A stretch of DNA of 40,663 bases from a virus. Lineage: Duplodnaviria > Heunggongvirae > Uroviricota > Caudoviricetes. Shown piece after piece: positions 17,024 to 17,710 of the stretch (its first letter is position 1; the number at the start of each line of letters is the position of its first letter). The DNA is taken from the IMG/VR virus record IMGVR_UViG_2874951433_000008, one strand, 5' to 3'. The translations under genes were made by a program, and so were the position numbers. Under the pieces are notes generated by a model that saw nothing but the letters and a program-made list of their open reading frames with translations, was not told where the DNA came from and ran no database searches.

Positions 17024-17635
17024 GCGAGATTTGAGACGAAGGTTGTTATTTGCACTGACACAATATTGTGTGGGAATGTCTGACTCCTTACCATCTCCTG
17101 TTCTGTGATGTTGTTTTGTTGCAGTTCCAGTGCTCTTTTTTCAGCACCAGAATGGTGCATTGTCGGTCAGGTTACGTAGTGAACCTCTGGCAGGGGACTG
17201 ATAATGCATCATTCTGGTGTTGTAAATATCTCTTCGGACAACTTACAAAATATTCTAAGCAAACCCCGGGAACACACTCTTAACTGCCTTGGTTGGCGGT
17301 TTTTTGTACAGCGCTCGGTATGTGTGAGCTGGAAATCAGATTTTGCATGGACTGGAATCATGCTGTTATTTAGGGGCGAAGAACTGGCTTTTTCTTCCGC
17401 CTTCTCACCAGTAACGATTAGAAAAATAATGAAATGCCCCTCCGGGGAGGAGGACCGTAGAAAAAAGGACCCGCCAGCAAAAACATTGGGGATGAACAGC
17501 TTTCGCTACTCAGATTGCTGGCGGGTAAAGTTCCTCATGAATTAAGAATGCTACGCGATCTTTTTTAATGGAAATGAAAATTATTGTCAATTAGTCGTGC
17601 GTGTTTTTTCATACAATATTGGTAAAGGTGATTCA

Positions 17636-17668
17636 GGCCATCAGAGTTTTGCTGATGGCCTTTTTTCT
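17636..17668 (+). terminator. Rho-independent terminator (GGCCATCAG-N7-CTGATGGCC followed by TTTTTT) just upstream of the holin gene
   Basis: Perfect 9-bp stem followed by a T-run. Confidence 0.65.
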
Positions 17669-17710
17669 TTCCGATAGCACAGGTCTGTCGGGGGGCGGGA
17701 TATGTATCAG

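Follow-up and report, generated by a model that had tools for sequence, protein, structure and literature searches.

The tRNA–holin interval of a defective lambdoid prophage is probably a conserved two-module non-coding leader rather than a scar of lost cargo

The region of lambdoid prophages between the late promoter and the lysis genes houses the genes for Shiga toxin (Stx) and many virulence-linked small RNAs (sRNAs). In phage lambda, the late promoter pR′ is followed by the 6S RNA and the terminator tR′, which is overcome by Q antitermination, and the holins S and S21 are under dual-start and upstream-hairpin control. RNA is also known from the tails of tRNA units: 3′ETS-leuZ is the 3′ external transcribed spacer (ETS) sRNA of the tRNA operon glyW-cysT-leuZ, and two small stable RNAs, species 1 and 2, are co-transcribed with the tRNA cluster of phage T4. 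In phage 933W, the annotated order is Q, pR′, qut, two terminators, the promoter pT, the tRNA genes ileZ, argN and argO, a terminator and stxA2B2; after stxB come STnc100 (plus strand) and AsxR (minus strand), placed back to back by Rfam, and then an esterase gene, p43, a conserved terminator and S. STnc100 lies 75 nt downstream of stx2 (PMC12370729, 2025), PasA, PasC and PasD adjoin the holin (Zhu et al. 2026 preprint), and convergent sRNA pairs have been described at this lambdoid 'moron' site (Tree et al. 2014, PMC4104026), a moron consisting of its own promoter, one or more genes and an intrinsic terminator (Juhala et al. 2000, as cited in PMC4104026). Here, we analyse the equivalent interval in a 40,663-nt stretch of viral DNA, IMG/VR record IMGVR_UViG_2874951433_000008, which is referred to in full as the window. 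The interval runs from the end of tRNA-Gly at 17023 to the holin ATG at 17702 and thus spans 17024–17701; a preliminary description had placed it correctly between the tRNA cluster and the holin gene, but extended it to 17710, 9 nt beyond the holin start.

The window shares the skeleton of the 933W region. In both, Q is followed by a promoter for tRNAs, a cluster of tRNA genes, a terminator and then a class II holin gene, and the annotated pT of 933W sits at the position that matches the tRNA promoter of the window. Both have a terminator ~40 nt before S, and the S leaders are homologous, with 71% identity over 97 nt. Because the order Q, tRNA promoter, four tRNAs, terminator, S is that of 933W, where stxA2B2 is annotated between the tRNA terminator and S, the point equivalent to the stx site can be placed at 17308–17322, and the identification of the interval as the Stx cargo slot in the preliminary description is borne out. 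In contrast to 933W, the window has no stxAB, STnc100, AsxR, esterase gene or p43; its Q is of the DUF1133 type, and its set of tRNAs is another one. The terminator follows the last tRNA by 14 nt in 933W, whereas a structured trailer of ~260 nt intervenes in the window, and there is no nucleotide similarity outside the S leader. As in lambda, predicted terminators that only Q-modified polymerase would pass stand between the late promoter and the lysis genes, and as in the S and S21 holins, there is a dual start (MYQM) with a hairpin next to the Shine–Dalgarno (SD) sequence. Unlike lambda, the window has at least two more predicted terminators at a long distance 3′ of pR′, the nearer to S standing directly before it.

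Our analysis indicates, with a probability of about 0.7, that the interval, rather than being the scar of lost cargo, is the non-coding leader of the late (lysis) operon and consists of two conserved modules. The two modules, A and B (Table 1), each end in a terminator, are joined end to end and are conserved independently of one another. Among 5,426 complete Escherichia coli genomes, the interval aligns from end to end in only nine, at 99% identity. Module B is found at 85–88% identity in ~1,450 of these genomes, and in ~1,500 records the alignment is confined to the part from 17323 onward. With the left part of the interval as query (17024–17322), ~70% identical copies were located right after tRNA-Gly in 223 genomes; a commoner variant of this module, used as query, identified 398 genomes (~7%) and 522 places, none of them annotated. 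Homology to other tRNA-Gly trailers spans 17040–17308, stopping at the T-run at 17307, and homology to AR_0086 (L002), to ColV-type plasmids (L008) and to a pathogenicity-island remnant (L124) begins at ~17316–17326. The modules abut within ~10–15 nt of the T-run of the terminator tA, so that no more than ~15 nt between them belong to neither. This junction is fixed in ~30 IMG/VR viral contigs and is found also in the nine E. coli genomes and in Shigella, from which we deduce that the arrangement is stable and not the outcome of a recent deletion. Relatives that share one half of the interval hold extra DNA exactly at this point and the window holds none, so the slot is indeed empty, as the preliminary description had it; the two functional-looking modules are cleanly joined, with no visible deletion scar.

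Table 1. Positions of the modules, their predicted elements and the neighbouring genes in the window
Feature	Position	Strand	Basis
DUF1133/Q-type antiterminator	15850–16524		Pfam
tRNA-unit promoter of the sigma-70 type, TTTGCA-18-TATTAT, with 10 nt from its end to the first tRNA	16675–16704	+	Promoter scan
Four phage tRNA genes: CAT, Arg-TCT, Thr-TGT, Gly-TCC	16714–17023	+	ARAGORN; Rfam tRNA, 56–70 bits
Module A: structured and conserved 3′ trailer of the tRNA unit, closed by an intrinsic terminator	17024–17307	+	Conservation, covariation
P1 domain: outer helix GCACUG/CAGUGC around two or three small hairpins, then U-run 17136–17141	17052–17133	+	RNAalifold
P2: ~33-bp hairpin with conserved 3′-side internal loop CUGGCAGGG	17138–17226	+	Inverted repeat I1; consensus helices 5 and 6
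tA: intrinsic terminator closing module A	17282–17307	+	Terminator scan
A/B junction, equivalent in position to the stx/cargo site	17308–17322	none	Homology breakpoints
Module B: leader of the class II holin cassette, non-coding	17323–17701	+	Conservation
Candidate antisense RNA, ~95 nt, 17555 to 17461, ending in the inverted repeat (17526–17469) and U6 (17466–17461)	17461–17555	−	
Candidate promoter: −35 TTGACA (17590–17585), 17-nt spacer, −10 TAAAAA (17567–17562)	17562–17590	−	Read from sequence
t3: intrinsic terminator ~35 nt before the holin ATG	17635–17668	+	Terminator scan
Small hairpin (17671–17691) and G-rich Shine–Dalgarno region of the holin	17671–17701	+	Minimum free energy folds
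P21-type (class II) holin, dual start MYQM, cut at codon 30	17702–17791	+	Pfam PF04971 (P21 holin S)
IS3-family element truncating the holin after codon 30; orfA 18964–18662, orfB 18626–17835	17792–19040	−	
Lysozyme gene, downstream of the IS3-family element	19157–19672		
IS66-family element, downstream of the lysozyme gene	19726–22345		

Module B, which matches no Rfam family and contains no conserved open reading frame (ORF), is one of several interchangeable leaders of P21-type holins. It occurs also in 558 plasmid records, as a remnant adjoining iss, and a pattern scan of viral contigs located it at 45 loci in ~3 sequence types, with the arms of its inverted repeat invariant. This repeat, which the preliminary description had set at about 17470–17525, is formed by 12-nt arms at 17469–17480 and 17515–17526 that are 100% complementary and 34 nt apart; a perfect arm of at least 12 nt was seen in 2 of 300 dinucleotide-preserving shuffles. 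Conservation within module B peaks in this segment, where 87% of columns are identical in four variants, holin-less remnants included. On the plus strand, no T-run follows the hairpin; on the minus strand, UCCUUUUUUCU (U6) follows it in every variant. About 30 nt upstream of the hairpin on the minus strand, a perfect TTGACA −35 box is embedded in the motif ATTGACAATAAT, which is common to AR_0086, the pathogenicity-island remnant and prophage PP4 of enteropathogenic E. coli (EPEC; L011). In PP4, this motif lies directly 5′ of a minus-strand Esr41-like RNA. These observations suggest a minus-strand, Esr41-like antisense RNA of ~95 nt with the inverted repeat as its terminator, a proposal for which we judge the odds to be roughly even.

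The candidate is best appraised beside Esr41 and the corresponding EPEC PP4 locus, E2348C_1013. All lie on the strand opposite to that of the late operon and directly upstream of a terminator and the class II holin gene, and share a terminator stem with the core CGCCAGC...GCUGGCG followed by U6–7; the window and the EPEC RNA also have the promoter motif in common. The terminator loop is enlarged in the window, as it is in the EPEC copy, to 34 nt and 25 nt, respectively, compared with 7 nt in Esr41. The body of the window RNA is ~57% identical over 37 nt, as aligned by eye, and expression and Hfq binding are known for the RNAs of EPEC and enterohaemorrhagic E. coli, whereas the window RNA is a candidate from sequence. 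The Esr41-like match in PP4 scored 32.3 bits (E = 3e-4) in a local search. E2348C_1013 maps to NC_011601 1060300–1060698 (L011 2801–3199) on the minus strand and overlaps PasD1 in antisense. Its RNA is abundant and Hfq-dependent, falling 7.5-fold in Δhfq (log2 fold change −2.9), and it is always RNA2, the second partner, in chimeras from RIL-seq (in which interacting RNAs are ligated and sequenced) that map to 1060613–1060654 on the minus strand (PMC8550237 supplements). The 'hypothetical protein' that RefSeq lists as E2348C_1013 is probably a mis-annotated sRNA gene.

If transcribed, the candidate minus-strand unit would match PasA and PasC in position and strand, between cargo and class II holin. 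The interval resembles the sites of the convergent pairs formed by the AsxR/AgvB anti-sRNAs, the EcOnc RNAs and the Pas sRNAs (PasA and PasC antisense, PasD/STnc100 sense), both in occupying the slot between pR′ or cargo and the holin and in the way in which terminator-ended units face each other, here tA ending at 17307 and the putative minus-strand hairpin at 17461. It differs from them in lacking any sequence or covariance-model match to any of these families and in having the tail of a tRNA unit, not STnc100, as the sense partner. The Pas sRNAs of EPEC E2348/69 were considered as homologues and set aside, their blastn similarity being confined to the holin start; PasB, which sits among tail genes, is irrelevant.

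Several points weigh against an antisense RNA gene in module B. The −10 box, TAAAAA, has no conserved final T, which is why the promoter scan missed the promoter, and a terminator loop of 34 nt is unusually large. The Rfam models of Esr41, AsxR, AgvB and STnc100 have no match in the window even at E ≤ 10 (for Esr41, RF02676, gathering score 102 bits, over 17300–17720), and the local alignment score of PasA with the window, 27, is at chance level (24.4 ± 4.7 in shuffled sequences, 76 of 300 scoring as high). Changes in the arms of the repeat favour opposite strands: in the plasmid variant L008, a C-to-T change retains a G-U pair on the plus strand alone, and a change in L159 retains pairing on the minus strand alone. 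Finally, covariation is inapplicable to the structures of module B because it is represented by only ~3 closely related sequence variants. It could be, then, that the repeat at 17469–17526 acts on the plus strand only, as a stabiliser, processing site or pause site of the late transcript, and that no antisense RNA gene is present. The poor −10 box and the L008 change are as this would predict, and the hairpin is nearly as stable on the plus strand (−26.3 kcal/mol) as on the minus strand (−28.3 kcal/mol, with an inner GAAA-capped stem). Such a role nevertheless leaves several features unaccounted for: the U-run is conserved on the minus strand in all variants and has no plus-strand equivalent, the perfect −35 motif is shared with an EPEC locus that makes an Hfq-dependent minus-strand RNA, the L159 change preserves pairing on the minus strand alone, and the segment is conserved in remnants that have no holin to regulate and in which the terminator t3 decays. 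A function restricted to the plus strand is therefore possible in our judgement, though not probable.

The slot is known to accept cargo in relatives of the window. In AR_0086, STnc100 lies ~100 nt 5′ of module B, and in strain 08-00022 (L007), module A is separated from the holin gene by TerB, DUF3927, STnc100 and IraM. These occupants, the correspondence with the moron site known from 933W (PMC4104026) and the decaying state of a prophage ridden with insertion sequences (IS) would all accord with the idea, raised in the preliminary description, that stxAB or another moron once stood between the tRNAs and the holin and that the interval is the leftover of a deletion. The searches for such a moron speak against it. 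No hit to StxA2 or StxB2 of 933W was obtained by tblastn in 16900–17900 at E ≤ 10, blastn with 933W at word size 7 returned only the S leader from the window region, and tblastn and sensitive blastn revealed no remnant of stxA, stxB, the 933W esterase gene, p43, TerB, DUF3927 or IraM in the interval. The STnc100/PasD model (RF02076; gathering score 47 bits) gave no window hit at E ≤ 1 or E ≤ 10, having scored 207.7, 114.5 and 93.7 bits in the positive controls 933W, AR_0086 and 08-00022; the AsxR (RF02703) and AgvB (RF02702) models gave no window hit, with 88.1 bits for AsxR in 933W. Rfam returned the tRNAs and chance-level hits only. Moreover, each half of the interval continues without a break as far as the end of a module known to be conserved in other places, with barely any sequence between them to assign to a deletion, and the junction is the one shared by the viral contigs, the E. 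coli genomes and Shigella. We consider a deletion scar unlikely on these grounds; a clean replacement by recombination in the past is conceivable.

Matches to Stx phages or other isolated phages were absent by megablast and partial, in five records, by sensitive blastn, and the Q–tRNA block had no match in any Stx phage. Alignment with Stx phages established that ~95 nt around the holin start are related and revealed no other sequence relationship.

Module A has a distribution of its own. A pattern built on its invariant core identified 105 viral-contig loci, and in 93 of 103 copies in viral contigs, the long hairpin of the module occurs 126–143 nt past the CCA end of tRNA-Gly. What lies downstream varies: a different two-holin/M15 lysis cassette at 51 loci, a class II holin with another leader at 21, a class II holin with module B at 11 and TerB cargo at 7. 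We conclude from this variable holin context that module A belongs with the tRNAs and not with the holin. In species-representative genomes, the pattern scan found the module only in Shigella flexneri and E. coli, besides chance palindromes, and only two isolated phage records carry it. Searches of module A against Rfam families gave no match.

A consensus structure for module A was derived with RNAalifold from 18 diverse copies, the terminator part from type I copies. Pairing is maintained in 97.9% of cells, 10 pairs show compensatory change and 44 cells are changed on both sides; none of 500 shuffles was as good, and only 36–52% of cells were paired in slid controls. Compensatory pairs thus exceed the controls, as expected of a structured RNA. 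G-U pairs make up 18% of the paired cells, pairing on the minus strand falls to 80.5%, and the fold z-score is −2.98. The inner helices of P1 covary (at one pair, for example, AU and GC occur 9:9) and its outer helix is invariant. The P2 arms, 17138–17168 and 17196–17226, are 31 nt long and 84% complementary; in the window variant, the apical helix next to the conserved loop CUGGCAGGG has another sequence, whose two sides are still complementary. The tA stem is kept and its loop is variable in 11 type I homologues. A conserved single-stranded stretch, CAUCCUUAAC, lies just 5′ of tA. With its predicted sigma-70 promoter (16675–16704) and predicted terminator (17282–17307), the tRNA unit is organised as an autonomous unit of the moron type. 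Overall, we conclude that module A is a plus-strand structured RNA, the tail of an autonomous tRNA unit that comprises its own promoter, four tRNAs, an RNA of ~260 nt and tA. It may act as a site at which RNase III processes the transcript, or be a stable RNA or an sRNA of the 3′ETS type. Like 3′ETS-leuZ and the RNAs of the T4 tRNA cluster, it lies past the last tRNA in the same transcription unit and ends at the terminator of that unit; it differs from them in being far longer (~280 nt) and in the dominance of its 33-bp helix.

Two features temper this conclusion. The P1 outer helix and much of P2 are invariant in sequence, so that part of the apparent structure could reflect conservation for another reason, and the consensus was derived from the plus strand, which biases the comparison of strands. 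The long palindrome at 17138–17226 could also work as DNA, as a protein-binding or recombination site, and not as RNA structure; 12 of the 27 pairs in helix 5 never vary, beyond what structure demands, and mosaic boundaries lie nearby. This is nonetheless very improbable, in that a DNA cruciform, or the opposite strand, would have A-C mismatches at the G-U cells, the apical helix has in the window variant been swapped for an unrelated complementary sequence, compensatory change is seen in 10 pairs, and the element always has the same orientation, at a fixed distance downstream of a tRNA gene that is transcribed. The possibility that P1 is a degenerate tRNA was discarded: the Rfam tRNA model has no hit in 17024–17140, and with ARAGORN thresholds at 75%, the positions and anticodons called disagree from one homologue to the next.

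Some copies of module A have particular settings. Type II trailers (for example, L042, L020 and L005) contain an extra ~90 nt that includes CGGGAGGCACCCG, followed by the same terminator as in type I; this motif is conserved also in STnc100, and by this sequence likeness the type II tRNA trailer and STnc100 may be distantly related. In two DH5alpha assemblies, tRNA-Thr, tRNA-Gly and a type II module A lie in a prophage (L005 2746–3107) whose DUF1367, DUF1364 and DUF1133 genes resemble those of the window. In phage SerU-LTIIb (L003), an LT-IIb phage, a block of tRNA-Gly, module A and holin1 is tandemly duplicated (1201–1488 and 3107–3390), and the toxin genes sit after the endolysin gene, outside the tRNA–holin slot.

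The interval has no credible coding capacity, in keeping with the preliminary description, which saw no convincing ORF: the longest, 17204–17545 (113 aa, ATG-initiated), crosses the A/B junction, neither it nor a 71-aa ORF has a Pfam hit, and a 63-aa ORF of a relative is frameshifted here. A hidden small-protein gene, be it this ATG-initiated ORF or the 63-aa protein that RefSeq annotates over the homologous stretch of AR_0086 (WP_000502162.1), is most improbable, as the longer ORF spans two modules that are found separately elsewhere, the shorter is split into two frames in the window and has an amino-acid identity (74–84%) not above its nucleotide identity (88%), and variants differ by indels of 1, 2 and 3 nt.

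The 3′ part of module B is a typical holin leader. The strong terminator that had been located at 17636–17668 was recovered by the terminator scan as t3, a stem–loop of 10 pairs at 17635–17661 with a T-run to ~17668. A homologous hairpin, GGCCATCAG...CTGNTGGCC with a T-run, stands 35–40 nt before the ATG in AR_0086, EPEC PP2 (L009), EPEC PP4, 08-00022, PhiR5_2 and 933W, with an A-U to G-C compensatory change in EPEC PP2; t3 can therefore be regarded as a standard fixture in front of class II holins. Just 5′ of the SD sequence, a small hairpin is predicted in six holin leaders whose sequences differ. Module B lies directly 5′ of the PF04971 holin gene, and its block of terminator and SD hairpin is conserved in seven leaders, that of 933W included; the last ~80 nt of the module are far more widely shared than the rest. 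The t3 3′ arm and U-tract (17652–17676) are 72% complementary over 25 nt to 17705–17729, which covers holin codons 2–9 and so includes the second start codon of the MYQM pair; such pairing could possibly affect the choice of start site, or it could be mere complementarity of an A-run and a T-run. A plus-strand promoter inside module B was rejected: the spacing of the predicted TTCTCA-17-AATAAT is 20 in AR_0086, and TACAAT at 17612 has no usable −35 box.

In ColV-type conjugative plasmids (L008 4001–4344) and in a pap pathogenicity island (L124 4001–4344), a remnant of module B is fused to an Rz fragment beside iss. This remnant is a fossil of the prophage from which the plasmid iss derives. 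In these plasmid and island remnants, t3 is decaying and the inverted repeat is intact. We had considered these copies as evidence for a portable unit ending at t3 and rejected this, a single deletion having fused module B to the Rz remnant; as all derive from that one deletion, they are not independent of each other.

The window is a decaying, defective lambdoid prophage of the Shigella flexneri/enteroinvasive E. coli lineage, 99.6–99.7% identical in rearranged blocks to S. flexneri SFBU1023 and to an E. coli record. Compared with SFBU1023 and E. coli ECMA0423, its block 16082–18266 adjoins an inverted block, 22877–26259/28330, which points to IS-mediated rearrangement inside the prophage. 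Homology of the holin to the intact 71-aa holin of L001 ends at 17791, and the IS element that interrupts it renders the lysis cassette of this copy dead. In E. coli CFSAN029787, by comparison, the holin behind the same interval is intact. Further copies of the same IS3-type ORF pair occur at 2450–3606, 4619–5775 and 33692–34821. This truncation of the holin, the inverted repeat at 17138–17226 and the terminator at 17282–17307 are absent from the preliminary description.

On the other side of the interval, ARAGORN calls the CAT tRNA Met, and PGAP labels its homologue Ile. L006, L007 and L001 have an equivalent of the tRNA promoter, a −35/−10 pair equally far from their first tRNA, despite different upstream contexts, making four contexts with that of the window. 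Like pR′ in 933W, a TTGACG box in the window overlaps the stop codon of Q; it is followed by a short GC hairpin and a T10 run; this stretch (16521–16627) is possibly a pR′/tR′ pair giving a short 6S/StxS-like RNA. Across 16400–17900, there are seven terminator-like sites, compared with 1.6 ± 1.4 in shuffled sequence.

How the leader might work can be sketched from these elements. In the lysogen, the tRNA promoter would transcribe the tRNAs and module A, stopping at tA; polymerase that leaked past tA would stop at t3, the last barrier before the lethal holin, and we propose that the holin would for this reason stay silent. Upon induction, Q-modified polymerase from pR′, placed near the Q stop codon by analogy with 933W, would read through all the terminators into S-R-Rz. 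The 33-bp helix of P2 might then be cut by RNase III, separating the tRNA part from the lysis mRNA, a role that we regard as doubtful; alternatively, the module A trailer might be released as a stable RNA or sRNA. If such an antisense RNA is made, it would form a perfect duplex with the late leader and might also act in trans via Hfq. Two considerations count against this scheme: all its steps at the window locus are inferred, and the putative tR′ (16605–16627) has a stem of only ~4 bp, for which the terminator scan made no call. The suggestion in the preliminary description that this is a regulatory or small-RNA region is upheld in kind by the conserved non-coding halves, the covariation in module A and the antisense-sRNA-gene architecture of module B; as to its role, we infer it.

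The kind of region described here is well known; its two RNA elements match no Rfam family. We offer tentatively a fuller interpretation, in which module A represents RNAs, stable or regulatory, of a family not yet described that is transcribed together with phage tRNA-Thr/Gly genes and is possibly RNase III-gated at its 33-bp helix, the inverted repeat is the terminator of a distant Esr41-like antisense sRNA, and the two form a convergent RNA pair at the Shiga toxin site. As the prophage is defective, the biological consequence at the window locus itself is small. The analysis flags a covariation-supported RNA structure behind phage tRNA genes that is unlisted in databases, together with a probable antisense sRNA gene and an EPEC 'CDS', E2348C_1013, that behaves as an sRNA. 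If the interpretation is true, module A would be a phage counterpart of the 3′ETS sRNAs or of the RNAs of the T4 tRNA cluster. The unoccupied site, moreover, helps to define the breakpoints of cargo exchange, which are here a tRNA unit that ends in a terminator and, across from it, a holin leader guarded by another.

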